DNA of 64,000 nt from assembly GCA_028821605.1 (NCBI GenBank), contig JAPPFM010000056.1:135466-199465 (forward strand). The letters are read 5' to 3'. The stretch is from Candidatus Poribacteria bacterium (lineage in GTDB: Bacteria; Poribacteria; WGA-4E; WGA-3G). Every line of letters begins with the position of its first letter. Position 1 is the first letter of the stretch. Positions 3,401 to 61,580 of this stretch are shown here, in pieces. The notes below the pieces were generated by a model. It did not search any database. It was not told the DNA's origin and worked only from the letters and a program-made list of their open reading frames with translations. The translations under genes were made by a program, and so were the position numbers.

Positions 3401-3463
3401 GCCGAAGGTTCGGAGTTTTAGACCTAAAGAAAATGTAGATCAAAAATTAGAGATGTCTAACTG

Positions 3464-6380: not shown

Positions 6381-6549
6381 AGGTAGTAGGCGCGCCGTTC
6401 ACCGTTCCTTCACAGGCACCTTTCACGCATCCTAAAAGAATAGGACTTACGCAATTTTCTAATGAGTACCTTACCGACCGCACGCCGCTGGCGAGGTTTG
6501 AAACCTCGCCAGTAAAGAAAGCTGCATAAGTCCTGAAGAGATAACCCTC

Positions 6550-7701: not shown

Positions 7702-7726
7702 TAATGCTTTAAGTCCCTTGCTTCGG

Positions 7727-7945: not shown

Positions 7946-8130
7946 CCTTTCCTTACTATTTCATTGCTAAATCAAAATGATTATAGCGTAAATCGGATTA
8001 AGCTGCCAAGAGTATTTTTCTACAGAAACATCCTTCTGATCGTGACACTCTTACTTCTCGCTGGCAGGTCTCCTACCTCCCCTTTTCTCATGTTTACAGG
8101 TGTATAAAGTTCTGGCATTCGGTATAATCG

Positions 8131-8358
8131 TAGGTTGGGTTGAGCGGTAAACCCTCATGAACCGCACATTTTACAGAGAATGTCTATTGCAAGCAACGAG
8201 AATCGTATAGAAATAAGAATAGCGAAACCCAACACGCCAAATACGATAGCAGATATGTTGGGTTTCACTTCTGTTCTGGTGTTTTCAGGTGGTTGGTTGT
8301 ATCTGAAGATTATCGCTTCTATGAGGTCTTCAGTAAGGTCCCGTTCAACCCAACCTAC
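8131..8358 (+). ncRNA. candidate structured sRNA (rod-like, 6S-like closing stem) or MITE
   Basis: 18-nt arms gtaggttgggttgagcgg (8131-8148) and ccgttcaacccaacctac (8341-8358) are inverted repeats enclosing about 190 nt. An internal hairpin gaaacccaaca...tgttgggtttc is present. A TATAAT box lies at 8123-8128 just upstream of the 5' arm, and a U-rich run gggattttg follows the 3' arm. The overlapping ORFs 7862..8107 and 8180..8368 have no protein-like features. Confidence 0.3.
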
Positions 8359-29272: not shown

Positions 29273-30466
29273 ATGAAGAACCTAAGCACAATCCTTTGTG
29301 GATTAATCCTGTTCGGGTTACTTGTTTTCATACTAAAAGTTAGTACGCCTGATGTACCAAAACGGATGGTATTCATTCCAGCGGGCGATGGCATGGACGC
29401 GTTCTACATGGATGTCTATGAAGTCACGAACGCAGACTATAAAAAATTCATTGATGCCAATCCTCAGTGGCAAAAAGACAAAGCCTTAATCTCAATTGTA
29501 GGGAATAAATACCTATCCGTTTGGGATAACAATATGTATCCAAAGGGTAAAGCAAATCATCCAGTAGTGAACGTTAGTTGGTTTGCAGCGAAGGCTTATG
29601 CGGAATGGGTTGGCAAAGACTTGCCGACAGACGCACAGTGGGAAAGAGCGGCGCGCGGCACACCGGTAGGGAAGAGATACAACTCCGTTGCATCTATCAC
29701 GTTCGGTTTTCCCGCGGCGCGTGCCACCTTGATAGAGAGGAAATATCCTTGGGGCGATGCTGAACCCCAGAGTAGAGCGAACTATAACCGTTACACACCT
29801 ACGACGGACTTCAGCGATCCGCCTACAAAAGAGGTTGGTAGTTATTTCCCAAACGAATACGGACTCTACGACATGGTAGGTAACGTTGCGGAATGGTGCT
29901 TAGACGGGTTAAATTTTGACGATATCCGTGGTAGGTATCATAGAGTCCGCGGCGGTTCTTGGTTTGACGGTGCCGAGGGTATCCGAATCACGAGGAAAAG
30001 TCAATACCCCGTAGATGGTGCTGTAGCGACGCTGGGTTTTCGTTGCGCGTCGTCAACAGCGGAGACGAATCCAACGACAAAGGTGGCAACTGAGATGGCT
30101 TCTTTTCTCTATGATGAGATGCGTAACCAGTTTGATAACGTATGCTATAGCGTGTCAAAAGGTTATGCTGCACATACTGACCTTAATCTCAAGTTCGCTG
30201 AAATTGTGACCTCCAATACCGGCTATCCTCGTACATTTGGAAAGGAGCTCATCCGTATTTTCCGAGAGGTCAATGCTGAACAGATGGAACCGGACAGCTT
30301 TTCTGAGCGGCTTGCTATCAACCACGATCTGATGCTTAGACTGTGGAGGCTCTATCTTGAGATTCACTTCGAGCACAGTGAGAAGAGTGCTTATGAGAAG
30401 TTACGTCTGTTCAAGGAGAACCTTACGGAAAATATGAACGACATTATTGTGCCAGATAGAAGCTAA
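29273..30466 (+). CDS. formylglycine-generating enzyme (FGE/SUMF1) family protein with N-terminal TM anchor and 130-aa C-terminal extension
   Basis: MVFIPAGDG, FYMDVYEVTNADYKKFI, HPVVNVSWFAAKAYAEWVGKDLPTDAQWERAARG, GLYDMVGNVAEWCLD, RVRGGSWFD, GFRCA. Start placed at MKNLSTILCGLILFGLLVFIL. Confidence 0.7.
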   Translation: MKNLSTILCGLILFGLLVFILKVSTPDVPKRMVFIPAGDGMDAFYMDVYEVTNADYKKFIDANPQWQKDKALISIVGNKYLSVWDNNMYPKGKANHPVVNVSWFAAKAYAEWVGKDLPTDAQWERAARGTPVGKRYNSVASITFGFPAARATLIERKYPWGDAEPQSRANYNRYTPTTDFSDPPTKEVGSYFPNEYGLYDMVGNVAEWCLDGLNFDDIRGRYHRVRGGSWFDGAEGIRITRKSQYPVDGAVATLGFRCASSTAETNPTTKVATEMASFLYDEMRNQFDNVCYSVSKGYAAHTDLNLKFAEIVTSNTGYPRTFGKELIRIFREVNAEQMEPDSFSERLAINHDLMLRLWRLYLEIHFEHSEKSAYEKLRLFKENLTENMNDIIVPDRS

Positions 30467-30481
30467 AAGCACACCATCCGA

Positions 30482-30545
30482 ATAGGCACGGGGTGGAAGT
30501 TACACCCCGCGCCTATCCCATCACTACTCCCTTTCTTTGTTTTAT
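30482..30545 (+). terminator. intrinsic terminator (ataggcacggggtg...caccccgcgcctat followed by T-rich tract)
   Basis: 14-bp stem with one mismatch, then cccatcactactccctttctttgtttt. Confidence 0.5.
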
Positions 30546-30731
30546 CCTCAAAAACCGAAGCGGTCTCCAAATTTTTGCTTGACTTTGCCTTCTGGGTATG
30601 GCATCATAAATTTGGATATGCTCTCTTGCTCACAATACAAATCAACCGGTGCATTATAATTAAACAACAGCCAACTGCATTGCCTAAAAAATTGGCAGGG
30701 GAGGCGCACGAGGTAGGGGAGGCGAATTGTA

Positions 30732-32186
30732 ATGACAGGATTTGAGGAATACAACACTGATGGATTTTATGACGAGATGTTCGCGCCAGATGGGAGTGCC
30801 CGTCCTGCTGCCCAGATGTTGGCAGAGCGGATTGAGAGTTTTCCTGAAGGCGAACTCACGCGTCGCCAAATTGCCGCTGAATATGCGTTGCTCCGAATGG
30901 GCATCACGTTCAACGTCTACGCGGACGAGCAGGGTGTCGAAAAAATCTTTCCGTTCGATCTCATTCCACGAATTATTGATGCCAGTGAATGGGAATGGAT
31001 AGAACGTGGACTCAAACAGCGCATCCAAGCGCTGAACCTATTCATTGACGACGTTTACCACGACCAAAAAATTCTTAAAGACGGTATCGTCCCGGCAGAT
31101 GTGGTGCTTTCATCGGAAAGATACCTACAACCCTGCATCGGTTTAGACCCGCCGCGCGGGATCTGGTGCCATATCACTGGCACAGATTTAGTTCGCGATG
31201 GCGATGGACAAGTTTATGTATTGGAAGATAATCTCGGTTGTCCATCTGGTGTCTCTTATGTCGTGGAAAACCGGCAGTTAATGAAGCGCACCTTTCCGCA
31301 ACTCTTTGGGATGTCGCAAATTCAACCGGTCGAAGATTATCCGAGTCAACTGCTGAATACGCTCCGGTACCTCGTAACCGACAAAATCTTATCTCCTGAA
31401 GTTGCGGTACTAACCCCTGGCGTTTATAACTCCGCATACTTTGAGCACTCCTTTCTGGCGCAGCAGATGGGGGTTGAATTGGTTGAGGGGCGCGATCTCG
31501 TCGTAATGGACGGGTTTGTGCACGCGCGAACGACGAAGGGTTTTGAGCGGGTTGATGTTATCTACCGCCGCATTAACGACGATTTCCTTGACCCGAAAGC
31601 GTTCAAACCGGAATCAATGCTCGGCGTTCCGGGATTGATGGAGGTTTACAAAGCCGGACGTGTCGCTTTGGTTAATGCCCCTGGCACCTGTGTCGCTGAC
31701 GACAAAGTCGTCTGTGCTTTCGTCCCTGAGATCATCAAGTATTATCTCGGTGAAGACATTATCGTCCCAAACGTTCCGACCTATATGTGTTGGAAAGATA
31801 GCGATCAGAAATATGTGCTGGAGCATCTCGACGAACTCGTTGTGAAAGAAGCCAACCAGTCTGGCGGCTATGGAATGCTGATCGGTCCCCACGCAACTAA
31901 AGCAGAACACGAGGAGTTTGCCCGCCGAATCAAAGATAATCCGCGTAATTACATCGCGCAACCGACACTCTCGCTTTCACGTGTGCCGGTGCTTATTGAC
32001 GATCATTTTGAGGGACGGCACGTTGATTTGCGTCCGTTTATCCTTTACGGTGAAGAGATTTACGTCCTCCCAGGTGGATTGACACGGGTCGCACTCAAAA
32101 AGGGTTCGCTTGTCGTCAACTCGTCACAGGGTGGGGGTAGCAAGGATACGTGGGTCTTATCGGGGCCGTCAGGAAAAGGCGCGTAG
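30732..32186 (+). CDS. circularly permuted type-2 ATP-grasp protein (CP_ATPgrasp_2)
   Basis: The N-terminus FEEYNTDGFYDEMFAPDGSARP...GITFNVY and the overall pattern are typical of this family. SD ggggagg upstream. Confidence 0.8.
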   Translation: MTGFEEYNTDGFYDEMFAPDGSARPAAQMLAERIESFPEGELTRRQIAAEYALLRMGITFNVYADEQGVEKIFPFDLIPRIIDASEWEWIERGLKQRIQALNLFIDDVYHDQKILKDGIVPADVVLSSERYLQPCIGLDPPRGIWCHITGTDLVRDGDGQVYVLEDNLGCPSGVSYVVENRQLMKRTFPQLFGMSQIQPVEDYPSQLLNTLRYLVTDKILSPEVAVLTPGVYNSAYFEHSFLAQQMGVELVEGRDLVVMDGFVHARTTKGFERVDVIYRRINDDFLDPKAFKPESMLGVPGLMEVYKAGRVALVNAPGTCVADDKVVCAFVPEIIKYYLGEDIIVPNVPTYMCWKDSDQKYVLEHLDELVVKEANQSGGYGMLIGPHATKAEHEEFARRIKDNPRNYIAQPTLSLSRVPVLIDDHFEGRHVDLRPFILYGEEIYVLPGGLTRVALKKGSLVVNSSQGGGSKDTWVLSGPSGKGA

Positions 32187-32282
32187 AGGCGAGATTCCTT
32201 CGCCTCTACACAAAAGCGCGAAAAGCCAAACAACGTGCGGCTTGGATTCTCTAACGGATCGGTGTTCATAAAATCTATCTGA

Positions 32283-32306
32283 CTGACCGCAAGGAAAATT
32301 AAAAAT
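32283..32306 (+). promoter_or_regulatory. copy 1 of conserved leader motif (C)TGACCGCAAGGAAAATTAAAAAT immediately 5' of the alpha-E gene
   Basis: Shares about 22-27 nt with the leaders at 33418-33450 and about 40683-40711. Confidence 0.45.
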
Positions 32307-33293
32307 ATGCTGAGTCGCGTTGCTGAATCAATTTATTGGATGAGTCGCTACATTGAACGTGCCGAGAATGTCGCCCGTTTTGTCGATGTCAACCTGCGTT
32401 TAATCCTTGATGCACCCGTCGGTATGCAGGCACAGTGGGAGCCTCTTGTTGCGACCACAGGCGATGATGAAGTGTTTGCTGAGCGTTACGGAGAGGCATC
32501 ACGTGAAGCCGTCATCCGATTTTTAGCGTTTGACACTGAAAATCCAAATTCAATTGTCTCTTGCTTGCGGGCTGGTCGAGAAAACGCGCGGTCGATACGC
32601 GAAAATATATCGTCAGAGATGTGGGAGCAGCTGAACGATGCCTACTTACTGGTAGCAAACACTTCCGAACAGTGGGCGATGGCAGAACCGCATGAATTCT
32701 TTACAGAGATCAAACTCGCATCACACCTCTTCATGGGACTCACAGATAATATCATGTCCCATAGCGAAGGGTGGCACTTCTGTCAGTTGGGACGTTTGAT
32801 TGAACGCGCGGACAAAACCTCGAGAATCGTTGATGTTAAATATTTTATTCTCCTTCCGTCTATCTGGGATGTGGACACACCTTTTGACGACATTCAATGG
32901 GGGGCACTTTTACACTCTGCCAGCGGTTTTGAAATGTATCGACGTACCTATGGACTCATCTCTCCGGACGATGTCGTCGCTTTTTTGCTGTTAGATCGTG
33001 AATTTCCACGGTCGGTTCTCTACTGTCTCTCCAAGGCGGAGGAGTCACTGCACGCGATATCCGGTACCCCGTTGGAAACCTTCTCCAATCCAGCAGAGCA
33101 GCGTTTGGGGCAGCTCCGTTCCGAATTTGCGTATGCCCAAGTCAAACAGGTACTCACGTCGGGTTTGCATGAATTCCTTGATGCTTTCCAAACCAAGCTG
33201 AACTTAGTCGGTGATGATATTTACAAGACATTTTTTGCCTTGCGACCTGTCAATGGAGAACCCGCTGCGGAACAGGAACAGTCTCAGTTGTGA
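32307..33293 (+). CDS. alpha-E domain protein (partner of CP ATP-grasp)
   Basis: The N-terminus LSRVAESIYWMSRYIERAENVARFVDVN is the alpha-E signature. Confidence 0.8.
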   Translation: MLSRVAESIYWMSRYIERAENVARFVDVNLRLILDAPVGMQAQWEPLVATTGDDEVFAERYGEASREAVIRFLAFDTENPNSIVSCLRAGRENARSIRENISSEMWEQLNDAYLLVANTSEQWAMAEPHEFFTEIKLASHLFMGLTDNIMSHSEGWHFCQLGRLIERADKTSRIVDVKYFILLPSIWDVDTPFDDIQWGALLHSASGFEMYRRTYGLISPDDVVAFLLLDREFPRSVLYCLSKAEESLHAISGTPLETFSNPAEQRLGQLRSEFAYAQVKQVLTSGLHEFLDAFQTKLNLVGDDIYKTFFALRPVNGEPAAEQEQSQL

Positions 33294-33417
33294 GTTATTT
33301 AAAGAGAAGGGGCGGGAAACCTGTCCCCTACGGAGCATCTAATTCTCCTCTTAAACGGAAAGCAAAGCATCGCGCCGGGACGGATATACGGAGTGGGATC
33401 TTATCAGTAAAATTCCG

Positions 33418-33450
33418 CTAACCGAACCGCAAGGAAATATTAAAAAAACA
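33418..33450 (+). promoter_or_regulatory. copy 2 of conserved leader motif CTAACCGAACCGCAAGGAAATATTAAAAAAA
   Basis: Immediately 5' of the long transglutaminase gene. Confidence 0.45.
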
Positions 33451-33453
33451 GAT

Positions 33454-36400
33454 ATGTCAATTCGTGTAGGAATCAACCACAAATCTCTATATCGCTATGA
33501 CCGGCTCGTCGGCTTATCGCCACATATTTTTCGGTTGAGACCCGCGGTCCACTGTCGCACACCGATTGAGGCGTATTCGCTCAAAATTGAACCCGAAGAA
33601 CACTTCATTAATTGGCAGCAAGATCCGTTTGGCAATTATCAAGCCCGTGTCGTTTTTCTACAACCCACATACGCCTTGTCGGTTGAGGTCGATCTTATTG
33701 CGGATATGACCGTCATCAATCCCTTCGATTTTTTCCTTGAAGCGAGTGCTGAACATTACCCATTTTTCTATGAGGCGCAGCTCAAACAAGAACTCACACC
33801 GTTCCTTGAAGTCAAAGAAAACGGACCCTTGTTGACAGCGTGGTTGGCAGATATTCCTCGGACGAAGAAGAAATTCAATGACTTCCTTGTTGACATCAAC
33901 AGATCTTTGCGGGAACATATAAAATACACGATTCGGATGGAACCAGGGGTCCAGTCCTGCGAAGAGACTTTAGGAAAGCAAATCGGTTCATGCCGGGACA
34001 CAGGGTGGCTGCTTGTCCAGATTTTGCGACATCTCGGTTTGGCTGCCCGTTTTGTTTCTGGTTACCTTGTACAACTTGTCGCTGATCAAAAACCTGTGAC
34101 AGGTCCCGCCGGTCCTCCGCAGGACTTCACCGATTTGCACGCTTGGTGCGAGGTTTACGCACCCGGAGCAGGGTGGATAGGATTAGATCCGACATCCGGC
34201 TTACTTGCAGGAGAAGGACATATTCCATTGGCGTGTGTGCCAGACCCGGTGAGTGCCGCGCCTGTCACTGGCTACACAGATCCATGCCAAACAGAATTTA
34301 CCTATAGCAACACTGTCCAACGTATCTACGAAGACCCGCGCGTGACGAAACCCTACACGGAAACACAGTGGGCTGATATTAATGCGCTCGGTCAACAGGT
34401 TGATGAGGATATAATTCAGAATGATATCCGATTGACAATGGGCGGTGAACCTACTTTCGTGTCAGTGGATGACACAGAGGGTGCGGAATGGGATACGGAA
34501 GCGGATAGCCCGAGGAAAAGAGAATTAGGTGCCGGACTCTTACAACGTTTACGCGATAGTTTCGGACCCAGCGGTGCACTCTACTACGGACAAGGGAAAT
34601 GGTATCCGGGTGAACCTTTACCGCGATGGAAATTCGGGTGTTTTTGGCGCAAGGACGGGGTGCCCGTGTGGCGGAACGATAAACTTCTCGCTGAACCTCA
34701 CAAGGATTATGGCTTCGGTTCCCGAGACGCAGAGCGATTTACACATCGCCTCGCCGAATGCTTGAAACTCTCACCAGACCAGATAGTTCCAGCTTATGAA
34801 GATGCACTCTTTTTCCTTTGGACAGAAGACAGGCTTCCGGTTAACATTAATCCGCTTGAATTTGACTTCAAGGAGGCTTCCGAACGACATCGTCTCGCGC
34901 AACTTCTGCAAACAGAGACACTCGGTGAACCCGTTGGCTACGCCCTACCGTTACGCTGGGATCTTGTGGACGATACTTGGGAGAGTTGTGTATGGAATTT
35001 CCGGGGTGGACAGATGTTCTTAACGCCCGGTGATTCACCCATCGGGTTGCGTCTGCCACTGGAGTCTATACAATGGGTGCCACCGAAACAGCGGGAGATG
35101 GTTTATGAGCGCGACCCGCTTGAACCGCGTGAGGAGAGTTTAGATACAGATAGTGAAGACAGACTCCCAACAGAGAACAGAGAGGCGGAAGCAATTTTTC
35201 ACACTGCCTTATGTATTGAACCGCGCGAGGGACGATTGCACATTTTTATTCCACCCTTGACGCACTTAGAGCACTATCTGCGACTCCTTGAAGCAATTGA
35301 AGCGACCGCTGAAGCCTTGGGTATGCCGGTAATTCTTGAAGGATATGAGGTCCCATACGATTCCCGAATTGAATCTCTGAATGTGACACCCGACCCAGGG
35401 GTCATTGAGGTAAACATTCATCCAGCGAAAAATTGGGATGAGGTGGTACATAACACCACAACGCTCTATGCACAAGCAAGGTTAGCTGGACTTAGTGCTG
35501 AAAAATTCATGTTGGATGGTCGGCATACTGGCACGGGAGGCGGCAATCATATTGTGATTGGTGGAGCCGCCCCGGCGGATAGCCCGTTTTTGCGAAAGCC
35601 TCACTTACTGCGAAGCCTTATCACCTATTGGCAGCATCATCCCGCTTTGTCTTATCTCTTTTCCGGTACATTCATCGGACCGACGAGTCAAGCTCCTCGC
35701 GTGGATGAGGGGCGCGATGAACAACTCTATGAACTTGAGGTCGCTTTTGAGCAGATGCCTGATGAAATGGGTGATGAGGAAGATGTTCCACCTTGGCTGG
35801 TAGACCGGCTGCTGAGACACCTCATGGTAGATCTCACCGGTAATACGCATCGTGCGGAGTTCTGTATTGATAAACTTTATTCACCCAATGCAGCGAGTAG
35901 AAGACTCGGATTGCTTGAACTACGGGCTTTTGAGATGCCGCCGCACGCCCAGATGAGTGTCGTGCAGATGCTGTTGGTGCGCGCATTAATCGCCAAATTC
36001 TGGAAGACACCCTACAAAGGCAAACTGGTACGCTGGGGGACAGAATTACACGATCGCTTCATGCTCCACCACTACGTCCACGCCGATATACAGGAGGTCA
36101 TTACTGAACTCCAAGCAGCAGGCTATTCGTTTGAAATGGCGTGGCTTGAACCGTTTTTTGAATTCCGTTTTCCGAAGTTGGGCACTACAAATATACAAGA
36201 TATTGAATTGGAACTAAGGATGGCAATTGAACCGTGGCATGTACTCGGTGAGGAGGTAACCCGGACGGGGACCTCGCGTTTCGTTGATTCTTCTGTTGAG
36301 CGGCTCCAAGTGAAGGTCAGTGGATTGACAGATTCCCGCTACATCGTCACATGCAATGGACGACGCTTGATACTTCACAACACTGGCACACATGGAGAAT

Positions 36401-36777
36401 ATGTCGGTGGGGTGCGCTATCGTGCGTGGCAACCGCCATCAGCGTTGCATCCTACAATCGGTGTCCACTCACCGCTCGTGTTTGACATCATCGACACATG
36501 GAACGGGCGCGCAATTGGTGGCTGTACCTATCACGTTTCCCATCCGGGTGGGCGACACTATGACACCTTCCCAGTCAACGCCTACGAGGCGGAAGCCCGA
36601 CGTGTAAGTCGGTTCGGGGCTGATGGACATACACCAGGCGTTATTCAACCGCGCCCGTCAGCACCTGCAGCTGGACATTTTCTGGCTGAGGGGAATCCGC
36701 CTGGTCCGATAGATGTCCCACCAGAAGAGACAAATGCTGAATATCCTTACACTTTAGATCTCCGCCGAATTCTTTAG
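33454..36777 (+). CDS. long transglutaminase-family protein (Bact_transglu_N + transglutaminase core + DUF2126-like C-terminal region; Rv2566-like)
   Basis: N-terminus MSIRVGINHKSLYRYDRLVGLSPHIFRLRPA. Cys-containing core GSCRDTGWLLVQILRHLGLAARFVSGYL. 1107 aa. Confidence 0.8.
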   Translation: MSIRVGINHKSLYRYDRLVGLSPHIFRLRPAVHCRTPIEAYSLKIEPEEHFINWQQDPFGNYQARVVFLQPTYALSVEVDLIADMTVINPFDFFLEASAEHYPFFYEAQLKQELTPFLEVKENGPLLTAWLADIPRTKKKFNDFLVDINRSLREHIKYTIRMEPGVQSCEETLGKQIGSCRDTGWLLVQILRHLGLAARFVSGYLVQLVADQKPVTGPAGPPQDFTDLHAWCEVYAPGAGWIGLDPTSGLLAGEGHIPLACVPDPVSAAPVTGYTDPCQTEFTYSNTVQRIYEDPRVTKPYTETQWADINALGQQVDEDIIQNDIRLTMGGEPTFVSVDDTEGAEWDTEADSPRKRELGAGLLQRLRDSFGPSGALYYGQGKWYPGEPLPRWKFGCFWRKDGVPVWRNDKLLAEPHKDYGFGSRDAERFTHRLAECLKLSPDQIVPAYEDALFFLWTEDRLPVNINPLEFDFKEASERHRLAQLLQTETLGEPVGYALPLRWDLVDDTWESCVWNFRGGQMFLTPGDSPIGLRLPLESIQWVPPKQREMVYERDPLEPREESLDTDSEDRLPTENREAEAIFHTALCIEPREGRLHIFIPPLTHLEHYLRLLEAIEATAEALGMPVILEGYEVPYDSRIESLNVTPDPGVIEVNIHPAKNWDEVVHNTTTLYAQARLAGLSAEKFMLDGRHTGTGGGNHIVIGGAAPADSPFLRKPHLLRSLITYWQHHPALSYLFSGTFIGPTSQAPRVDEGRDEQLYELEVAFEQMPDEMGDEEDVPPWLVDRLLRHLMVDLTGNTHRAEFCIDKLYSPNAASRRLGLLELRAFEMPPHAQMSVVQMLLVRALIAKFWKTPYKGKLVRWGTELHDRFMLHHYVHADIQEVITELQAAGYSFEMAWLEPFFEFRFPKLGTTNIQDIELELRMAIEPWHVLGEEVTRTGTSRFVDSSVERLQVKVSGLTDSRYIVTCNGRRLILHNTGTHGEYVGGVRYRAWQPPSALHPTIGVHSPLVFDIIDTWNGRAIGGCTYHVSHPGGRHYDTFPVNAYEAEARRVSRFGADGHTPGVIQPRPSAPAAGHFLAEGNPPGPIDVPPEETNAEYPYTLDLRRIL

Positions 36778-36778
36778 G

Positions 36779-36843
36779 GGTTATCGGTCATCGGTTAAAG
36801 AGGTAGTTGATTTTACAAAACCACCTCTTAACTGACAACTAAT
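36779..36843. repeat. short member of MITE-like palindromic element family (arms GTTATCGGTCATCGGTTAAAGAGGT / ACCTCTTAACTGACAACTAAT)
   Basis: Inverted arms around an 18-nt centre, between the transglutaminase stop and the next ATG. Confidence 0.55.
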
Positions 36844-36860
36844 TGGATAAAGACAAAGAA

Positions 36861-39587
36861 ATGCAACGCGCAGATGTAAAAGATTGGACGGTAATCGGTG
36901 ATAGTTATAACACCATCGAATCGTCCCGTGGACGTACAGGCAATGTTCCCGGTAAGCAGATCGATGAGATGTTGGGTGCGGATAGACAAATAAATCCGCA
37001 CTGGCACGCCTTCATGCAGGCACTCGACACGTTAGGACTCGCGGAGATGGAATCTCGCGACAAAGAGGTGCAACGTCTGCTTCGAGAGAACGGTGTCACC
37101 TACGTCTTACACGGGGAACAGCAGGGACATCGCCCGTGGGAATTAGATCCCATTCCACTAATTATCTCAAAAATAGATTGGGAAACGATCTCTGACGGAC
37201 TTACACAACGAGCGGAGCTGCTAAACCTAATTTTGGCGGATCTCTATGGTGAGCGAACCTTAATCAAAGATGGGTTGATACCACCAGAAGTGATTTATGC
37301 GCATGCTGGATTTTTGCGAGCGTGTGTCGGGCTTGTTCCGTTTGGATTCCCTTTCCTCTTGAGTTATGCCGCCGATTTGGCGCGCGGACCGGACGGCGAA
37401 ATGTGGATACTCGGTGATCGGGCACAGGCACCATCAGGTGCAGGCTACGCGCTCGAAAATCGCACCGCCCTCGCGCGCGCACTACCGAACCTCTTTGGTG
37501 AAGTCGGCGTTCATCGACTCTCTTTTTTCTTCCGCGCACTACAAAACAGCGTCGTGGACCTACAACACCAACTTGAAACTGCTTCCCGTATTGCGCCGCA
37601 TCAAACAGACAACCCACAGGTCGTTGTACTGACCCCTGGTCCCCTCAACGAAACTTATTTTGAACACGCGTATCTCGCAAACTACCTCGGTTACACCTTA
37701 GTCCAAGGTGATGACTTGACGGTGTGGGATGGGCGCGTTTGGTTGAAGTCGCTTGATGGCTTGCGCCCTGTCGATATTATTTTGCGCCGAGTGGATGATG
37801 TTTTTTGTGATCCGTTGGAACTCCGACAGGATTCAAGACTTGGGGTCGCAGGTTTGCTGGAAGCGATTCGACAGGGAAACGTGGTTGTGATAAATCCGCC
37901 GGGCAGCGGTGTTTTAGAAAATCCGGGCTTGATGCCGTTCCTGCCGAACATCGCAAAACGGTTGTTGGGTGAAGACCTACGTCTCCCCTCTGTCGCAACA
38001 TGGTGGTGTGGGCAACCGAAGCAGCGCGACTATGTGTTGGCAAACCTTAAAAAGTTAGTCGTCAAACCTATTCACCGTCAACCGGGCGGACGACCCCTGT
38101 TTGGAAGTGAACTCGATAGTAGTCAACTTGATGCACTTCGCGCTCGGATTAATGCCAAACCGCATCTCTATGTCGGGCAGGAGCATGTTCACTTCTCCAC
38201 AACACCCTCGCTGATTGAAGGGAAACTTGAACCCCGCCGTGCGATTCTTCGTAGTTTTTTGTTCGCAGAGAGAGATGGCTACACCGTGATGCCAGGTGGG
38301 CTTACCCGTTGTGCAGGCGAGAAGGGTGAACTGACAATCTCAATCCAAGATGGTGGAGTTAGTAAAGACACCTGGGTACTTGCCTCTGAACCTGAACCGC
38401 ATGTCAGTTTATGGCAGCGACGTATCACCGAGGTGATGGGTCCTGCTTCTACGAGTCCGGCTGGATTGTCGAGTCGTGCAGCTGAGAATCTGTTCTGGGT
38501 AGGTCGCTATGCGGAACGGGCAGAGGGACAAGCGCGGCTCCTGCGGATTATGTTGAATAAGGTCAAGATGGGTAGGATGGGCTTGGAGACTTCCCACTTA
38601 GCACAAGGACTACCTTCCGCGCTCTTTACGGAGACCTTCGGTGACGATGAAAGGGAAGTATCGGAACTCGCGTATCTCCACAGCATGCTCCGCTCCCTGA
38701 CCGGTTTAACTTCATCGCACCCGGGTTTCGTCAGAAAAGACGAACAGTCGTTAGAAGATGAGCTTCTTTCCATCATGCTGGACGTGGAAAACACCGGCAG
38801 CTTGGTGTCTACGCTTCAGGCACTTCTCACCGCGGCTTACGCAGTCAGAGACCGCTGGTCTACCGACACATGGCGTGTGATGAACGGCATTGAAGATCTA
38901 TGTGCTGCCCTTGAAAAAAGCGTTCCCGGAGATGGAGATGCAAGTCCACAGATATTGACGGACCTCGTGCTGCAAGAAGCGGAATTAGCCTCACTGGATC
39001 AACTCATGATCTTTCTTTCAGCACTGAGTGGGCTTAATGCCGAAAACATGACGCAAACGATCGGTTGGATTAGTTTGGATATGGGACGGCGTATTGAACG
39101 CGCACTGCTTCTCATGGTGCTTTGCCGTTCGAGTCTTGTCGCCGTTCAGGACGACTGGGTTGAATATATGTTACTTGAATCTGTCCTTGCTGCCGCCGAG
39201 AGCCTGATCACTTACCGCAGCCGCTATCGTACAACACTCCACTTTCCAACTGTCTTAGAGTTGCTACTTCTTGACGAGAACAACCCGCGCTCGCTCTTAT
39301 ATCAGTTGAAACGGCTTGAGGAACAGATACGTATCCTCCCAAGGGAAAAACTCGGTTACCGGCTTAGCGAGGAGGAACAACTCATTCTGGAGGCTTTAAC
39401 GCAGTTGCAGCTTTCTAATACAATTGACCTCGCCGAGCGTTCGGAGCACACAACACAACGTAAGGGGTTAGAAAAACTCCTTGTCCGCCTTGCACAGATA
39501 CTGGTTGACATTTCCGATGTCCTCACGCAGACCTATTTTAGCCACGTCCAAAGACCGCAGCAGTTGATTACAACCGATAACCTTTAG
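36861..39587 (+). CDS. CP type-2 ATP-grasp fused to alpha-E domain (Rv2567-like)
   Basis: The N-terminal half parallels ORF 30732 (IDEMLGADRQINPHW...). The C-terminal half carries AENLFWVGRYAERAEGQARLLRIML (alpha-E). 36843 is an alternative start. Confidence 0.75.
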   Translation: MQRADVKDWTVIGDSYNTIESSRGRTGNVPGKQIDEMLGADRQINPHWHAFMQALDTLGLAEMESRDKEVQRLLRENGVTYVLHGEQQGHRPWELDPIPLIISKIDWETISDGLTQRAELLNLILADLYGERTLIKDGLIPPEVIYAHAGFLRACVGLVPFGFPFLLSYAADLARGPDGEMWILGDRAQAPSGAGYALENRTALARALPNLFGEVGVHRLSFFFRALQNSVVDLQHQLETASRIAPHQTDNPQVVVLTPGPLNETYFEHAYLANYLGYTLVQGDDLTVWDGRVWLKSLDGLRPVDIILRRVDDVFCDPLELRQDSRLGVAGLLEAIRQGNVVVINPPGSGVLENPGLMPFLPNIAKRLLGEDLRLPSVATWWCGQPKQRDYVLANLKKLVVKPIHRQPGGRPLFGSELDSSQLDALRARINAKPHLYVGQEHVHFSTTPSLIEGKLEPRRAILRSFLFAERDGYTVMPGGLTRCAGEKGELTISIQDGGVSKDTWVLASEPEPHVSLWQRRITEVMGPASTSPAGLSSRAAENLFWVGRYAERAEGQARLLRIMLNKVKMGRMGLETSHLAQGLPSALFTETFGDDEREVSELAYLHSMLRSLTGLTSSHPGFVRKDEQSLEDELLSIMLDVENTGSLVSTLQALLTAAYAVRDRWSTDTWRVMNGIEDLCAALEKSVPGDGDASPQILTDLVLQEAELASLDQLMIFLSALSGLNAENMTQTIGWISLDMGRRIERALLLMVLCRSSLVAVQDDWVEYMLLESVLAAAESLITYRSRYRTTLHFPTVLELLLLDENNPRSLLYQLKRLEEQIRILPREKLGYRLSEEEQLILEALTQLQLSNTIDLAERSEHTTQRKGLEKLLVRLAQILVDISDVLTQTYFSHVQRPQQLITTDNL

Positions 39588-39626
39588 TCCCGGGGAGCAC
39601 CTCACAGTCTCCATAGGATTACTGCG

Positions 39627-40508
39627 ATGAATTACAAGATCGTCCATAAAACTGAATACAGCTATACCCATCCCGTGAACCTCTGCTATAACGAGGCGCG
39701 TTTGAGTCCCCGGAGTTTTGCTCATCAGGATTGTAGCGAGAGTCAGTTCGTTGTGGACCCCGAACCTAAAGAGTGCCGAGAACGTCAGGATTTCTTTGGA
39801 AACACCGTTTACTATTTCACAATCCAGCAGCCTCATAATCAACTCACCGTTAGGGTTACGAGTCGTGTGAACGTCAAAGACAGAGAGATGCAACTGAATT
39901 TCGCCAAGCACCTCACTTGGGAGGAGGTGCGACAGCAGTTGCAAACGGATCAGAATTCGGGAATTCTGGAGATGCGGCAATATGTTCTTGACTCTCCAAT
40001 GGTTCCGATGATGCCCGAACTCCACGCTTATGCTGAAAAGTCGTTTACCAAAAGAAAACCGCTGCTCGAAGCTGTTAACGATTTGACCACTCGTCTCTAC
40101 ACCGATTTTACCTACGATCCGGGCTTCACGACAATCGCAACACCGTTGGCTGATGTCATAGAGCATCGTCGGGGTGTTTGTCAAGATTTTGCGCACCTCG
40201 GTATCGGGTGTCTACGTGCGTTGGGGCTTGCTGCGCGTTACGTCAGCGGCTATATTGAGACTGTCCCGCCACCGGATCAGGAGCCGTTAGCGGGTGCCGA
40301 TGCCTCCCATGCGTGGTTTTCTGTTTATCTCCCGCAGCTTGGCTGGGTAGATTTCGATCCGACAAATAACCAGATACCAGCAGATCAGCACATCACAATC
40401 GCATGGGGAAGAGACTATGCGGACGTAACGCCGCTGAAGGGTGTTGTCTTTGGGAGTGGCACACATGAATTATCTGTCTCGGTGGATTGTAAACGGGAAA
40501 ATTTTTAA
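39627..40508 (+). CDS. transglutaminase-family protein (Bact_transglu_N + core; Rv2569c-like)
   Basis: MNYKIVHKTEYSYTHPVNLCYNEARLSPRS, RGVCQDFAHLGIGCLRALGLAARYVSGY, HAW...DPTN. Confidence 0.8.
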   Translation: MNYKIVHKTEYSYTHPVNLCYNEARLSPRSFAHQDCSESQFVVDPEPKECRERQDFFGNTVYYFTIQQPHNQLTVRVTSRVNVKDREMQLNFAKHLTWEEVRQQLQTDQNSGILEMRQYVLDSPMVPMMPELHAYAEKSFTKRKPLLEAVNDLTTRLYTDFTYDPGFTTIATPLADVIEHRRGVCQDFAHLGIGCLRALGLAARYVSGYIETVPPPDQEPLAGADASHAWFSVYLPQLGWVDFDPTNNQIPADQHITIAWGRDYADVTPLKGVVFGSGTHELSVSVDCKRENF

Positions 40509-40521
40509 CCAGTCGCATGCT

Positions 40522-40640
40522 GGTTATCAGTTTTCAGTTCGGTTTTTCTGCGAAAAACCTTTCAGTTTTCAGAAAGAGACTTTGGAATTATCCAAAACCT
40601 CTTGTAACTGACGACTGACAGCTGATAACTGAAAACTATT
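40522..40640. repeat. MITE-like palindromic element copy (TIR GGTTATCAGTTTTCAGTTCGG ... CTGACGACTGACAGCTGATAACTGAAAACTATT)
   Basis: Inverted terminal arms. The right end is identical over about 30 nt to the copy at 44430-44459. Confidence 0.6.
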
Positions 40641-40682
40641 AAAGCGGATCTACGGAGAGGAACGCGAAAATCACCAAGACCC

Positions 40683-40711
40683 CTAACCGAACCGCAAGGA
40701 AAATTAAAATA
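40683..40711 (+). promoter_or_regulatory. copy 3 of conserved leader motif CTAACCGAACCGCAAGGAAAATTAAAATA
   Basis: Immediately 5' of the MazG-like gene. Confidence 0.45.
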
Positions 40712-40996
40712 ATGACAATTGAAGCGTTTCAGAAGCAAATTGAAGCTATCTATTACACGCGCGATGCTGAGCGCGGCGTACCACTAACCTTTACATGGTT
40801 CGTTGAAGAGGTCGGCGAATTGGCGAAGGAAATCCGCAAACAGCCGCAGGACATAGAACGGCTGCGAGAGGAATTCGCCGATGTTTTTGCATGGCTCGCC
40901 ACGTTAGCGAGCCTGCTCGGTATTTCCTTAGAAGATGCCGCGCAAATCTACGCAGCGGGCTGCCCGAAATGCAAAGATACGCCCTGCGACTGTTAA
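40712..40996 (+). CDS. MazG-like nucleotide pyrophosphohydrolase domain small protein with C-terminal CPKC...C.C motif
   Basis: EEVGELAKE ... EEFADVFAWL matches the MazG NTP-PPase helical core. 94 aa. Confidence 0.55.
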   Translation: MTIEAFQKQIEAIYYTRDAERGVPLTFTWFVEEVGELAKEIRKQPQDIERLREEFADVFAWLATLASLLGISLEDAAQIYAAGCPKCKDTPCDC

Positions 40997-41010
40997 CTCG
41001 CGTGGTGGAC

Positions 41011-42282
41011 TTAATTTCCATTCAAAAACCGATCGAAGTTACCGCCGAACAGGTTGTTGACATCCCGCTCAATCTCTGCCGAAGTCGGTGCCCACCCGAC
41101 ATCGAGAAGCGTTTGATATTTCTCTACCAAAACGTCCGCGATAATCTGACGCGAGTGTTTCCACTTATAGACAAGCTGATCCAAAATTCGTGCATCGGAA
41201 TGCTGTGGGATAACACTCAAACCGAGCAGTTCAATCCGTTCTCGTGTAATCTCCTCAATGACGCTCGGATTGTTCATAAACCACCAACATCCGAATATCA
41301 TCAAATTCTTGAATTTCCGCCCAATCACACACAATTCATGCTGGTTCTCGCGAGACAGCAGGGTAACGAGAAACTTATTGTCAGGATTTTCACGGAGTAG
41401 CGTTTCCAGACTCGTCAGATCCGCTTTCCCACTTCCGTCACCTGCCATCTGAAGTTGTGGGTTAACGGCGCGTTTCACGCCAATCATCAGCGCGAACGGA
41501 ACGTTAAATTCACGCGAAATCGGTAGTATGCAGTTGTCAAAGAGCCTTCCAAGGACACCATCCTCAGGGTATTGGAAATCCGGTGGGAGGGAGACCGCCA
41601 TATATTTCGGGTTCATTCGTTGAATCCATGTTTCCAAAAATCTGCGGACTTCCTTGTAAGTCTTCTCTGTTGATAGATCAGGATCAACATCATAGCCGAG
41701 ACCGAGAAGGTGATCATAACCGACTTCTTGGTAAGTGTTGATGAGGACATCCATCCGAAGTGCCGCTTCAAAGCGCGTGTCACCCGTGTCACCAGATTGC
41801 CAGACCGGTGCTTCTGCCGAATCAAAAGGATCGTTCGTCATCACCACTTTAGAGACTTTTGCGCGTTCAAAAACAGTGTCAATAAATGCCTCAACGGTGG
41901 TATCCGCAAAGTAGTCGCGGTAGTCCTGTAGATTGCGAGAACCGACATCTAACCCCAATTCATTTAAAGCCGTCACAACCCCTCGGCACGCCTCACTCAC
42001 CGGTGAGTTCTCAATAAAAAGCGTCTGCCAGATGAGATCTGCTTGTTCCGTCTTTGTCATCGCCCAGAACTGCTGATATGAGATATCCGATTTGCGGAAG
42101 ACTTCAGCGATAAGGTAGTGATAGGTAAGCAATTCATCTATACCCCATAACAACAAGTCACCGAAGGGCGGACTAAAGAGGTGTGTGTGAATATCTGTGA
42201 TGTTTTGCGTGTCAACAGCGTCAAAAACAGCGGTTTTCAACTGTTCTGTGGTAGCAAGTGTCTGTGTTTGATTCATGTTCAT
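41011..42282 (-). CDS. uxaC: glucuronate (uronate) isomerase family protein
   Basis: ITDIHTHLFSPPF aligns with UxaC PIFDYHCHLPP. The C-terminal FGCWWFMNN...DARILDQLVYKW...NLFGGNFDRF aligns with E. coli UxaC FGSGWWFND...DSRSFLSYTRHEYFRR...NICFNNARDYF. Confidence 0.6.
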   Translation of the reverse strand: MNMNQTQTLATTEQLKTAVFDAVDTQNITDIHTHLFSPPFGDLLLWGIDELLTYHYLIAEVFRKSDISYQQFWAMTKTEQADLIWQTLFIENSPVSEACRGVVTALNELGLDVGSRNLQDYRDYFADTTVEAFIDTVFERAKVSKVVMTNDPFDSAEAPVWQSGDTGDTRFEAALRMDVLINTYQEVGYDHLLGLGYDVDPDLSTEKTYKEVRRFLETWIQRMNPKYMAVSLPPDFQYPEDGVLGRLFDNCILPISREFNVPFALMIGVKRAVNPQLQMAGDGSGKADLTSLETLLRENPDNKFLVTLLSRENQHELCVIGRKFKNLMIFGCWWFMNNPSVIEEITRERIELLGLSVIPQHSDARILDQLVYKWKHSRQIIADVLVEKYQTLLDVGWAPTSAEIERDVNNLFGGNFDRFLNGN

Positions 42283-44318: not shown

Positions 44319-44459
44319 GGTTATCAGTTACCAGTTATCGGTTGTCGGTTAAGAGGGTGTTTGGTAACAATTCCCCAACTTCGGGTACTCCAGAAGGAGG
44401 TAAATCGTTACAAATTCCCTCTTTAACTGATAACTGACGACTGACAACTGAAAACTATT
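44319..44459. repeat. MITE-like palindromic element copy (GGTTATCAGTTACCAGTTATCGGTTGTCGGTTAAGAGGG ... CCCTCTTTAACTGATAACTGACGACTGACAACTGAAAACTATT)
   Basis: Long inverted terminal repeats, inserted between tpiA and secG. The right arm overlaps the last 12 codons and the stop of tpiA. Confidence 0.65.
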
Positions 44460-49333: not shown

Positions 49334-52300
49334 ATGCGATATATCAAACCCATCGTTTGGCTCATCTTTATCCTCTCTGGTGCCAGTGGACTCATTTATG
49401 AAGTCATCTGGATGCGGCAGCTCACGCTCATCTTCGGCAGCACCGTCTTCGCAACGAGTACCGTCCTGACCGCATTTATGGCAGGACTCGCACTCGGCAG
49501 CTACTACTTCGGTAGGAAGATCGACGAAAGCACACAGTCACCACTACGGATTTACGCGCTTTTGGAAGCGGGTATCGGTGCGTTCTGCCTTGTCTGGCCC
49601 CTCATTTTAGGGGCATTAAGTGCCATTTATGTTTTGGTTCATCGCAATATCACATCAGAGTTCTACACCCTCTCGCTCATCCGGTTCGTGCTAACGTTCG
49701 GGGTTCTGTTAATTCCCTCCACACTGATGGGTGGCACTCTACCGGTGCTAACCCGCTTTTTTGTGAAAAGGTTGGAGCAGCTCGGCACCAATATTGGGAT
49801 TCTGTATGCGTTGAACACATTCGGTGCCGTTATCGGAACTGTGGCAGCAGGATTTTTCCTAATTGAAGCGTTAGGTGTTCGATGGACGCTCGGTGTCGGT
49901 ATCGCTATTAATTTCGGCGTAGCAGCGGTTGCATTAGCGTTATCACAGAAGGTATCGGAAACAGAAGAGGTCAGCAGTCAGCAAAGCGATTTTCTTGCTG
50001 ATAGCCGACAGCCGACGGTTTCCGATAGCCATCCCTCCGACAACCGACAACCGACAACCGACAACTCTAAATTGGTATTATGGGCAATAGGCATCTCCGG
50101 GTTCTGTGCGTTGGCTTATGAAGTGTTGTGGACACGCATCATGGTCTTCTTCCTTGGGAGTACAACCTATGCGTTCGCGACGATGCTTGCTGCGTTCCTA
50201 TTCGGTATCGCGCTGGGGAGTATGGTATTTGCACGTTGGGTTGACCGGGTTAAACAACCTGTAGTAGTTTTCGGTATTATTCAACTCGGTATCGGACTTT
50301 TCGCGCTTCTCCTGATGCCCGCGTTTGAGGAGTTGTACGGCATGAGCCGTGCGTTCCAGTCCACCTTTGGCGGAAGTAGGTTCTGGGCATTTTTCTCCTG
50401 TTTCCTTGTGATGTGCCTTCCAACGTTTCTGATGGGCACGAGTTTTCCACTTGTGACGAAAATCTATACCGGCAGCGCACGTCAACTCGGTAGGAGCATT
50501 GGGAACGTCTATGCAGTCAACACAGTCGGGAGCATTTTAGGGGCGTTTTTTGCAGGATTCATCCTGATCCCACTTCTGGGCATCCGACCGAGCATCGTGC
50601 TAATGGTGGCTTTGAACACAGGCATCGGGTGCCTGCTTGTTTTAAGAGGTGAATGGCGGGCTGAAACCGGGAAATCGCTCCTACAAGGGGTAAGCATCGG
50701 GATGCCGATCCTCAACGCTGGATTGGCTGTTATCATGTTGCTCACCGTGAATCAACCGCTCTTTCTGAAAAGTGCCATTTTCAAAACGCAACGCCCCGGC
50801 GATACACTCGTTGATTACAACGAGGAGGTGGACGCGACCGTAACAACGTTAAAAGATGATGAAGGGGTCTATCGTCTCTATGTAGACACAAATCAGGCAG
50901 CGGATGCCTCGCGCTGGGATTCACCGTCGCATCGCGTCATCGCACATCTACCGTTGCTACTGCATCCACGTCCAAAACGTGCCCTCGTCGTCGGGTTCGG
51001 TATGGGGCTTACTTCGTATTCCATAACACAGCACGGTGTGCAAGTTGACGCAGTGGAACTGTCGAGCGGCGTGATTTCCGCTGCACAGAAGTATTTCACG
51101 CACGTCAACGGGAATGTGTTTGAAAACCCTCAATTTAACTATAGACTCAACGATGGGCGAAACCATATCCTGATGACGAAGACGAAATACGATATGATCT
51201 CGACGGGGATCATTCATCCGCTCGTCAGTGCGGGGAGTTCCAACATTTACACCGCCGATTTCTACCGTTTGTGTCGTCGGATTTTGAGCGAAGATGGGAT
51301 CATGTGCCAGTGGGTGCCATTGCATCGCTTACCAGAGGCGCACTATAAGATGATTGTGCGCACCTTCATTGAGGTGTTCCCGCACACAACGCTCTGGTAT
51401 AAGTACACACCGGATTTTGTGATTCTTATCGGCACACGTGAACCGCTGCGGATTGACTACAAAAACTTCATCGAACGCTCACAGATAGCGAGTATTCGAG
51501 AAGGGCTTGCTGCCGATGATCTGGATGGGATGTCGCTGCTCGATTCATTCATGATGGGACCTGAGAATGTACGTAAGTACGCAGACATTGGACCTATCCA
51601 CACAGACAACCGACCTCGATTGGAATTTTTCCGTGGGGCAGATTTGGTGGGTACAACAACACAGAACGTTAAAGGGATGGCAGAATACCGGGAACGGGTG
51701 CTGCCTTACCTCACCAACTACGGCACGACACTCGCAGAGAAACGGGACGCACGAGAGAAACTTGACACCTATTTTAGAGCCACACAGAGATTGATTCGTG
51801 GACAAATTGCTTATGCAAGCGCGCAGTATCAAAATGCCGCGGCACTCATGAACGAAGCGGTGGAACTCAATCCCGTTGACGAGACGATTCGCTATAACTT
51901 TGGGGTCGTCGCAGGTTTAATTCGCGAAGGTGAACAGGAAGAACTCCAACAGATTGAACGGCAGGTACAGCAGACGATGGCACAAAACCCTGATGACCTT
52001 CAGGGACACCTCCATTTGGCAACGTTGTATGAGATGCAAGGTGAACTCGGAAAGGCAGCAACGGAGTTAGAGGAATTACTCAGACGCGATCCGAAGAGAT
52101 TTGAGGTCTATCTGCTCTTAGGTCCGCTGTATGAACGTCAGGAACGCTACAAAGACGCGCTTCGCACCTATGAACGGCTTGAACGACTGGAGACAACTTT
52201 GCAATTGCCAGCACCCATTTTTGCAGCAATGGCGGGCCTCCATCTGCAATTGGAAAACATAACTGAAGCCGAAAAATATGGAAAGAAGGGCATCGCCGCG

Positions 52301-54738: not shown

Positions 54739-54860
54739 AGTTATCGGTTTGCCTCGCAGTGAGAGTTATCAGTTTTCAGTCCGAGACGCTTTGTGGCAGT
54801 AACACAATTTGTACCTGCCACAAGAAGTTAACTGACAACCGATAACTGATGACTGATAAC
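54739..54860. repeat. MITE-like palindromic element copy with internal TTGTGGCAG...CTGCCACAA hairpin
   Basis: Arms GAGTTATCGGTTTGCC...GAGAGTTATCAGTTTTCAGTC and GTTAACTGACAACCGATAACTGATGACTGATAAC, between aspS and the Uma2 gene. Confidence 0.6.
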
Positions 54861-61488: not shown

Positions 61489-61580
61489 TCTCGGTTATCA
61501 GTTGTCAGTTAAGCCTTGTGGCAGTTGTACGTTACATGACTTCCACAACCCTCACTTTAACCTAAAACTGATAACTGAAA
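61489..61580. repeat. MITE-like palindromic element copy (CGGTTATCAGTTGTCAGTTAAG ... CTGATAACTGAAAG) with TTGTGGCAG...CCACAA core
   Basis: Lies between the stop of the giant gene and the transporter gene. Its arms match the family consensus. Confidence 0.6.

Follow-up and report, generated by a model that had tools for sequence, protein, structure and literature searches.

A 64-kb stretch of DNA from Candidatus Poribacteria bacterium (contig JAPPFM010000056.1; the whole stretch of 64,000 nucleotides is called the window below) carries three copies of a short motif, placed just before the start codons of an Alpha-E gene, a long transglutaminase gene and a MazG-like gene. This motif is probably the ribosome-binding 3' module of a mosaic repeat that is specific to Poribacteria, occurs in many copies and would act as a portable, mainly intercistronic translation-initiation leader. 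The full unit is 70-100 bases long and reads, in order, (C)GTAG, a hairpin, GGATATACGGAGAGGCACGTCAAA..CCAAACCCACCTGACCGA, ACCGCAAGG(A/T)AAATTAAAAAA and ATG; the motif noticed first is its conserved 3' end. A preliminary description of the window had taken the three copies as the mark of a regulatory element shared by one gene cluster. The same motif, at the same spacing, stands before genes of 100 Pfam families, in 42 assemblies and on three phage contigs, and regulation peculiar to the cluster is thereby contradicted.

Three copies in the window

The window matches the 12-mer ACCGCAAGGAAA at exactly three places, 32286, 33426 and 40691, all on the + strand, when a search allowing one mismatch has a chance expectation of 0.42 matches. 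The 8-mer CCGCAAGG lies within it, at 32287-32294, 33427-33434 and 40692-40699. The full string quoted in the preliminary description, which has 28 letters and not 27, matches 33418-33445 with three mismatches and 40683-40710 with one, and shuffled sequences give no match; the three copies are thus present as first reported and are far from chance. Copy 1 (32279-32306) differs from the string in its upstream half (CTGACTG-ACCGC, with a one-base deletion) and for this reason escapes a three-mismatch search. The motif as delimited at first is real, and the similarity runs further upstream than had been reported: CGGAT(A/C)TACGGAG(T/A)GG is common to copies 2 and 3 ahead of it, and an nhmmer profile of the element finds only these three copies in the window, at 32213-32309, 33366-33449 and 40643-40718.

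Copy 1 (32213-32306, + strand; nhmmer E=4.5e-9) is a full unit with a diverged middle, delimited also by alignment with relatives that lack the element, and it ends 1 nt 5' of the Alpha-E ATG. Its hairpin module (32223-32243, +) reads AAGCC aaacaacgtgc GGCTT, with a loop pattern at 32226 of 'type 3', a type frequent in Poribacteria copies. Its core and tail (32286-32306, +) are ACCGCAAGGAAAATTAAAAAT, with a Shine-Dalgarno (SD)-like AAGGA at 32291-32295, and up to the start codon the copy reads ctgactgACCGCAAGGAAAATTAAAAAT followed by ATG 32307. Copy 2 (33366-33447, +; E=2.8e-13) has a decayed 5' hairpin arm, a core and tail (33426-33445, +) of the form ACCGCAAGGAAATATTAAAA, and the sequence ctaaccgaACCGCAAGGAAATATTAAAAAAACAGAT before ATG 33454; it ends 6-8 nt before that codon. 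Copy 3 (40643-40711, +; E=1.6e-13) is truncated on the left: it begins at GCGGATCTACGGAG, has neither the hairpin nor any other module upstream of GCGGATCTACGG, carries the core and tail ACCGCAAGGAAAATTAAAAT (40691-40710, +), and reads ctaaccgaACCGCAAGGAAAATTAAAATA before ATG 40712, ending 1 nt before it.

The gap between core plus tail and the ATG, first given as 0-6 nt, is in fact 1, 8 and 1 nt for ATG 32307, 33454 and 40712. The larger gap of copy 2 arises because the native hexamer ACAGAT is retained before the ATG. The distance from AAGGA to the ATG is correspondingly greater in copy 2 (18 nt) than in copies 1 and 3 (11 nt each), an SD being expected 5-13 nt upstream of the start codon. 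The motif holds the only SD-like sequence before the three genes and lies on the sense strand, which bears out its description as a 5'-leader element. It is missing from the other long open reading frames (ORFs) of the window, about 35 in number, of which at least ten have GGAG or GGAGG 5-9 nt upstream of the start. The motif is thus restricted to a minority of genes; ubiquity upstream of most genes, which according to the preliminary description would have spoken against a regulatory element, is not observed. The canonical usage of the other genes implies a standard anti-SD. Copies 2 and 3 fold no better than shuffled sequences. The HIP1 sequence GCGATCGC occurs only once in the window, which shows that the DNA does not come from a HIP1-rich cyanobacterium.

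Anatomy of the repeat

Four parts can be recognized in the unit: a head with the consensus GTAG, a covarying hairpin of 4-7 bp, a leader of about 45 nt that is A/C-rich, G-poor, constant in length and variable in sequence, and the box CCGCAAGG(A/T)AA with an A/T-rich tail that ends at the start codon. The tail consensus is ATTAAAAAA, and box and tail together can be written CCGCAAGG(A/T)AA-TTAAAAA. The exact GTAG head is present in 17 of 83 hairpins; ATAG, GCAG, TAAG and CAAG are also common, and the third and fourth columns of the head are A and G, respectively, each in 64 of the 83. The hairpin stands 44-45 nt from the box in most copies, and a second class, at 65-67 nt, contains the extra module GGGGTTTTTGCTTGGGTGTTTCTTCA. 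Among the upstream blocks, GATATACGG is one of the better conserved. The two ends of the unit, the GTAG-hairpin and the A/T-rich tail, are unrelated, and the motif itself is not palindromic.

The hairpin stems vary in sequence yet stay complementary (GCCC/GGGC, GTCC/GGAC, GCTT/AAGC, GCCTGC/GCAGGC, AGCCC/GGGCT). When hairpins were picked by their loop motif alone and the pairs were then counted, 90.2% of the cells were paired compared with 73.9% in shuffles (none of 500 reached the observed value) and 33-56% in slid controls. Cells changed on both sides numbered 110, against 34.3 in shuffles, and one inner pair alternates between C-G (41) and U-A (39). The 3' 60-90 nt have no supported structure: RNAalifold predicts only a 2-bp CC/GG stem around GCAA and mutual information reveals no Watson-Crick helices. 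A hand-built long-range pairing of GGAUAUACGG with CCGAACC was rejected, as neither RNAalifold nor mutual information supports it, and so was an extended hairpin around CC-GCAA-GG, which the flanking bases do not support either. What would mark a structured cis-regulatory RNA was therefore sought in vain: there is no Rfam match and no 3' helix, and only the separate 5' hairpin module covaries.

This module also stands alone, 25 of 84 hairpins (loci L083-L202) having no CCGCAAGG within 90 nt, and the solitary hairpins often have longer stems of 7 bp. Its internal loop shows conserved G.A, U.G and A.G oppositions and a GAA triloop, and the hairpin may form an independent structured motif. The third small module, GGGGTTTTTGCTTGGGTGTTTCTTCA, occurs in intergenic spacers in both orientations, in the sense direction in L092, L101, L121 and L176 and as its reverse complement in L089, L093 and L133; it is often found between hairpin and leader and resembles a stem followed by a T-run. 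Two apparent likenesses to 16S rRNA are probably coincidences: that of CCGCAAGG to the GCAA tetraloop hairpin of Escherichia coli helix 27, and that of AACCGCAAGG to the 5' strand of helix 45.

Position relative to genes

The element is tightly associated with start codons. Of the 154 exact cores, 99 (64%) are followed by an ORF of 60 aa or more that begins 7-11 nt after the 12-mer, compared with 5% at random positions; in 75 of these the start lies exactly 9 nt after it. The 76 distinct downstream proteins fall into 100 Pfam families without a functional theme, including PhyH, GFO/IDH/MocA, xylose-isomerase-like barrels, TrpE, TrpG, HisRS, E2 acyltransferases and ABC transporters. The neighbouring genes are co-directional around 130 copies, and nine copies follow a divergent neighbour, a preference that shows the element to be mainly intercistronic. 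The start regions it leads are A+C-rich (67%) and poor in G (14.5%), and they fold weakly: the mean free energy of the segment -45 to +15 is -4.3 kcal/mol, whereas genes with a canonical SD in these loci reach -7.9 (Mann-Whitney p=9e-21).

Distribution across Poribacteria

A scan for ACCGCAAGGAAAWWTWAAA in one genome per species (GTDB), of the genome-wide kind proposed in the preliminary description, recovers at least 120 stretches and thus shows that the motif is not confined to the cluster. Among the matches listed, about 112 lie in 42 assemblies, of which 40 are labelled Poribacteria and two 'uncultured bacterium', the latter with full elements; also among the matches listed, about eight are isolated core-only matches in other phyla. 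The nhmmer profile derived from these matches detects 215 copies in the Poribacteria DNA that was fetched as containing the core (1.05 Mb). Its single hit in the Alpha-E loci, which total 585 kb and come almost entirely from other organisms, is the copy of locus L003 described below. Extrapolation from the 215 copies and from the window (three copies per 64 kb) gives a copy number of the order of 100-400 per genome, an estimate based on these DNA samples. In the 61 copies without an exact seed, CCGCAAGG is nearly invariant and is followed by A or T and then by an A/T-rich tail. Direct tandem copies 85-137 nt apart occur in several loci, and copies often cluster locally elsewhere, as they do in the window.

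No known RNA family corresponds to the element. Rfam gives no match at the gathering score over the whole window, none of its families matches the element at E<=10 in 32000-41000 (Rfam 15), and at E<=1 in 61 kb from eight element-rich loci, with about 15 units, there are only chance-level matches elsewhere. A conserved non-coding element of Poribacteria, the Poribacteria-1 motif, was reportedly described by Weinberg et al. in 2017. The main text of that article makes no mention of Poribacteria, and no paper describing the present element was found in the literature on Poribacteria repeats, intergenic elements, Shine-Dalgarno sequences, structured RNA or 'Poribacteria-1'.

Filled and empty sites in close relatives

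A protein-guided scan of metagenome contigs yielded 80 Alpha-E loci. The Alpha-E protein is encoded on L001, an 80-kb metagenome scaffold, and on L002, a 6.19-Mb contig of a near-identical relative that keeps all three copies. The closest relatives that are not near-identical, both with long flanks, are L003 and L006 (93% and 86% Alpha-E identity). In both, the Alpha-E gene follows the ATP-grasp gene by at most about 12 nt and has a GGAGG-type SD of its own (gtgtaggaggatatcATG) without the motif. The spacer between the Alpha-E and transglutaminase genes, about 14 nt in L003 and about 66 nt in L006, lacks the motif as well, and at the position of the ACAGAT that the window retains before ATG 33454 L003 has ACAGCT. 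Conversely, L003 has the motif before the ATP-grasp gene: tttgACCGCAAGGAAAATTAAAAAAgcaATG. These filled and empty junctions indicate that the motif comes and goes at single gene starts over short evolutionary distances. A shared regulatory element, according to the preliminary description, should not be missing from the same genes in close relatives, and it is missing at the Alpha-E and transglutaminase starts of L003 and L006.

The same pattern holds more widely. The core is present at 30 of 54 orthologous starts in other species. Of the 24 starts without it, most have AAGGAG or GGAGG at the usual distance, and about five, judged by eye from the listed sequences, are decayed copies, three of which have lost CCGC and kept AAGGAAAATTAAAAA. 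When filled and empty sites are aligned, the right edge falls sharply at the ATG and the left edge varies, without duplication of the target; the element ends at the ATG or within 8 nt of it. At the starts that carry it, the element thus stands in place of the native SD region as far as the ATG. Across species, 19 orthologous pairs (90% amino acid identity at the N-terminus) have leaders (-62 to -3) that are 63% identical, close to the 66% of third codon positions, while ACCGCAAGG is identical in all 19 and the tail length is kept within about 1 nt.

Copies on phage contigs

At least seven, at least six and two full units are present on three related IMG/VR contigs, whose lengths are 33.9, 78.7 and 41.7 kb, respectively. 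The contigs are IMGVR_UViG_3300012932_000188 (L204, L210), IMGVR_UViG_2740892559_000001 (L211-L214) and IMGVR_UViG_3300012947_000033 (L215, L216), and they encode a terminase large subunit, a portal protein, a head maturation protease, a major head protein and a ParA-like partition protein. Wherever the following ORF is readable, its start codon lies 11-12 nt after CCGCAAGG. The element therefore stands before phage genes, whether these belong to a free phage, a phage-plasmid or a prophage in a host contig. The many full units before their genes suggest a Poribacteria host and, possibly, a vehicle for the spread of the element. The major head gene of two of the contigs (L204 1997-2014; L216, - strand, ORF 2936-4324) is led by a bare CCGCAAGGAGAAAAAATG, in which the 8-mer box runs directly into a canonical AAGGAG SD and the other parts of the element are missing.

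Possible mechanism and alternative explanations

In the mechanism that these features suggest, the element would be transcribed within a mostly polycistronic mRNA and would provide the downstream cistron with its own translation-initiation region, formed by an SD-like AAGG(A) about 11 nt 5' of the AUG and an A/U-rich spacer of fixed length. The structure-poor, A/C-rich leader could serve as a ribosome loading platform, and the 5' hairpin, acting on the RNA as a stabilizer or processing site, might stabilize or delimit the RNA segment. On arrival, the element takes the place of the native SD region of a gene, as it does in the window at the Alpha-E, long transglutaminase and MazG-like genes.

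Several observations weigh against this explanation. Translation, transcription and processing are all deduced from sequence. The SD pairing would be limited to AAGG or AAGGA, and its distance from the AUG exceeds by about 3 nt that of the GGAG used elsewhere in the window; the variant AAGGT is common, and complementarity to the anti-SD is a prediction, no rRNA being present in the sequences analysed. About 19% of the cores (30 of 154) have no start within 45 nt, being upstream members of tandem arrays or orphan copies. In the hairpin, G-U pairs are not in excess over A-C mismatches (eight and nine, both rare), and the hairpin could act at the level of DNA instead of RNA. The loci used for the conservation figures were fetched by an exact core match and are to that extent biased towards conservation. 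Moreover, CCGC is conserved as strongly as AAGG, for which an SD role alone is insufficient. The invariance of CCGC and the orphan and tandem copies, left unexplained by an SD, keep two other explanations under consideration: a selfish repeat and the target of a global factor.

A selfish, non-autonomous mobile element, of the kind formed by repetitive extragenic palindromic (REP) sequences and their REP-associated tyrosine transposases (RAYT) or by miniature inverted-repeat transposable elements (MITEs), is a distinctly possible explanation, the association with start codons then reflecting sites where insertion is tolerated. The GTAG-like head, a covarying hairpin without asymmetry of G-U over A-C, the tandem arrays and orphan copies, the presence/absence polymorphism at orthologous sites, the mosaic combination with other small repeat modules and the copies on phage or phage-plasmid contigs able to move between hosts all fit such an origin. 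They would have to be reconciled with the exact 9-nt ATG spacing of half of the copies, a near-total co-orientation with the downstream gene and the 130:9 preference for co-directional junctions, which are unexpected under neutral insertion, and with the maintenance of the core at orthologous genes where the leader drifts near the synonymous rate; there are, besides, neither terminal inverted repeats nor a target-site duplication, and the filled sites look like replacements. This explanation is in part compatible with a translation-initiation leader, namely if a mobile element carries a functional ribosome-binding site (RBS). A bolder explanation, which we regard as rather doubtful, is a self-propagating 'RBS cassette' shared by Poribacteria and their phages: carrying a complete translation-initiation region, it would be installed exactly at start codons, over the native SD, by an undescribed targeting or recombination process, its CCGCAAGG would be read by a lineage-specific factor acting in propagation, RNA processing or initiation, and a sizeable share of the proteome would be made from one leader. 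It seems unlikely that CCGCAAGG is instead the site of a global post-transcriptional factor (a CsrA-like protein, a small RNA with a CCUUGCGG seed or an endoribonuclease) with a very large regulon. The conservation of CCGC beyond the need of an SD would be accounted for, CAAGGA fits the CsrA core consensus A(N)GGA, ACGGA motifs occur upstream in the element and the distance between hairpin and box is fixed at 44-45 nt. CsrA-type targets present A(N)GGA in hairpin loops, at two or more sites of which one overlaps the SD. However, no covariation places GGA in a hairpin loop here, where only the 2-bp CC/GG mini-stem around GCAA is predicted, and the three decayed orthologous copies that keep AAGGAAAATTAAAAA without CCGC point to SD and spacer as the selected part.

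An internal promoter or terminator-promoter cassette, which would make the downstream gene an independent transcription unit, is quite improbable. A frequent variant in which the hairpin is followed by GGGGTTTTTGCTTGGGTGTTTCTTCAGATATACGG could be read as a stem with a T-run, then TTGCTT, about 15 nt and TATACG, and the relative conservation of GATATACGG upstream would agree with it. Yet the hexamers and their spacing are poor, and none of the 17 promoter-like sites of 30400-41100 is a sigma-70-like site inside a window copy on the + strand (Poribacteria promoters being uncharacterized); copy 3 of the window lacks the upstream modules altogether, and the element avoids the divergent positions where a promoter is needed (9 versus 130). 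A leaderless promoter (TTGACC, 17 nt, TAAAAT) was also considered and was rejected because its -10 element would abut the ATG. The occurrence of the motif at three of six consecutive genes and nowhere else in the 64 kb, with all three copies kept in L002, had suggested a cluster-specific site that coordinates three ATP-grasp/transglutaminase genes and ties in MazG. This is now most improbable: the element precedes unrelated genes throughout the phylum and clusters locally in other loci too, neither L003 nor L006 has it at these junctions, and L003 carries it before a different gene of the cluster. The link to the MazG-like gene fails on the same grounds, and also because this gene adjoins the cluster only in L001, L002 and L003 (L003 18343-18627), that is, only in close relatives and in none of the 77 other Alpha-E loci, L006 included, and because terminator-like hairpins intervene. 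Finally, AAGGA and an A-rich spacer are what a generic RBS context of the organism would contain. Such a context is scarcely credible here, given that only three of about 38 long ORFs of the window have the motif, others using GGAG or GGAGG, and that similarity spans 70-100 nt and includes a hairpin module.

Comparison with known systems and significance

The element resembles REP sequences and bacterial interspersed mosaic elements (BIMEs) in being extragenic, often intercistronic and mosaic, with a covarying hairpin. It probably resembles them also in its copy number, REPs having hundreds of extragenic copies per genome, and in its GTAG-consensus head, which recalls the conserved GT(A/G)G 5' of the REP hairpin. 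REPs are known to affect mRNA stability within operons; they frequently form inverted pairs (the REPIN/BIME arrangement) and have no fixed orientation to genes. Unlike them, the element follows the direction of the downstream gene, is found singly or in direct tandem without inverted pairs, and has as its conserved end a non-palindromic RBS at a fixed distance from the ATG. The Correia elements of Neisseria, the ERIC/IRU sequences and the pneumococcal BOX and RUP elements are short co-transcribed repeats that create promoters or processing sites or alter mRNA stability. The Poribacteria element is likewise a short non-coding intergenic repeat; it differs from them by the lack of terminal inverted repeats and target-site duplications and by ending at the start codon, their distance to genes being variable.

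The 'upstream homology box' of Borrelia is a shared upstream region, and putative mobile promoters are said to have been described by Matus-Garcia et al. in 2012. As in both, homologous upstream sequence precedes non-homologous genes and brings expression signals that include an RBS. In contrast to both, the element has no detectable promoter, is mostly intercistronic and forms a defined unit of hairpin and fixed spacer; its copy number appears higher and its spread is phylum-wide. With SD sequences accompanied by A/U- or CA-rich enhancers (S1-dependent standby sites) it shares AAGG(A), an A/U-rich spacer and an unstructured A/C-rich leader. These evolve gene by gene, whereas here one homologous cassette recurs, and the invariant box CCGCAAGG exceeds the length that SD pairing needs. 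The element would thus belong with dispersed intergenic repeats that affect expression, and it is unusual in that its conserved end would itself be the ribosome-binding region, at a fixed distance from the start codon.

If this is correct, an uncultivated candidate phylum of sponge symbionts, together with its phages, would start translation of perhaps 100 or more unrelated genes from one homologous leader, a natural counterpart of the standardized, insulated RBS parts of synthetic biology. Equally unusual would be that a dispersed repeat takes the place of a core gene-expression signal and does not merely neighbour it. In practice, the element could mark true start codons in metagenome-assembled genomes of Poribacteria, provide a compact taxonomic marker with which to bin contigs and to link phages to Poribacteria hosts, and serve as a ready-made expression element for heterologous work on this phylum. 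More generally, shared upstream motifs should not be taken as evidence of a functional link between neighbouring genes.

Other features of the window

According to a Pfam scan, the host gene cluster (30732-40508, + strand throughout) comprises a CP-ATP-grasp gene (30732-32186), the Alpha-E gene (32307-33293), the transglutaminase-DUF2126 gene (33454-36777), an ATP-grasp+Alpha-E fusion gene (36843-39587) and a transglutaminase gene of 293 aa (39627-40508). The MazG-like gene led by copy 3 (40712-40996, +; 94 aa; PF03819, E=1.7e-9) follows. Terminator-like hairpins and a palindrome of NNACYGA heptamers, the latter from another repeat family (40506-40640), lie between the 293-aa transglutaminase gene and copy 3 and separate the cluster from the MazG-like gene. 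A perfect 13-bp hairpin over the stop codon of the ATP-grasp gene (32180-32212), directly 5' of copy 1, is also part of the minimum-free-energy fold; its counterpart in L002 has an extra 28-nt insertion in the loop. Elsewhere in L002, an FGE-sulfatase gene upstream of the cluster (5819-8131) is interrupted by a DDE transposase gene on the opposite strand (PF13612), and a DDE_3/HTH pair stands in place of the PhyH genes of L001.

The second repeat family consists of arrays of NNACYGA heptamers (TAACTGA, CAACCGA and others) and their reverse complements, which together form palindromes at gene ends. In the window, such arrays lie at 36786-36840, 40523-40541, 40605-40640, 44320-44338, 44424-44451, 50041-50061, 54765-54783, 54829-54856 and 61491-61512. 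The 7-mer directly 5' of the core (TAACCGA, TGACCGA and TGACTGA) fits this heptamer, which suggests a possible relationship between the two families.

Large genes with internal repeats occupy 20-2431, 2828-3400 and 55596-61487 of the window. Repeat units of about 130-160 nt are found at 1-720 and units of 33 nt at 3068-3327, and a 66-nt period across 57.3-59.9 kb may encode leucine-rich repeats.

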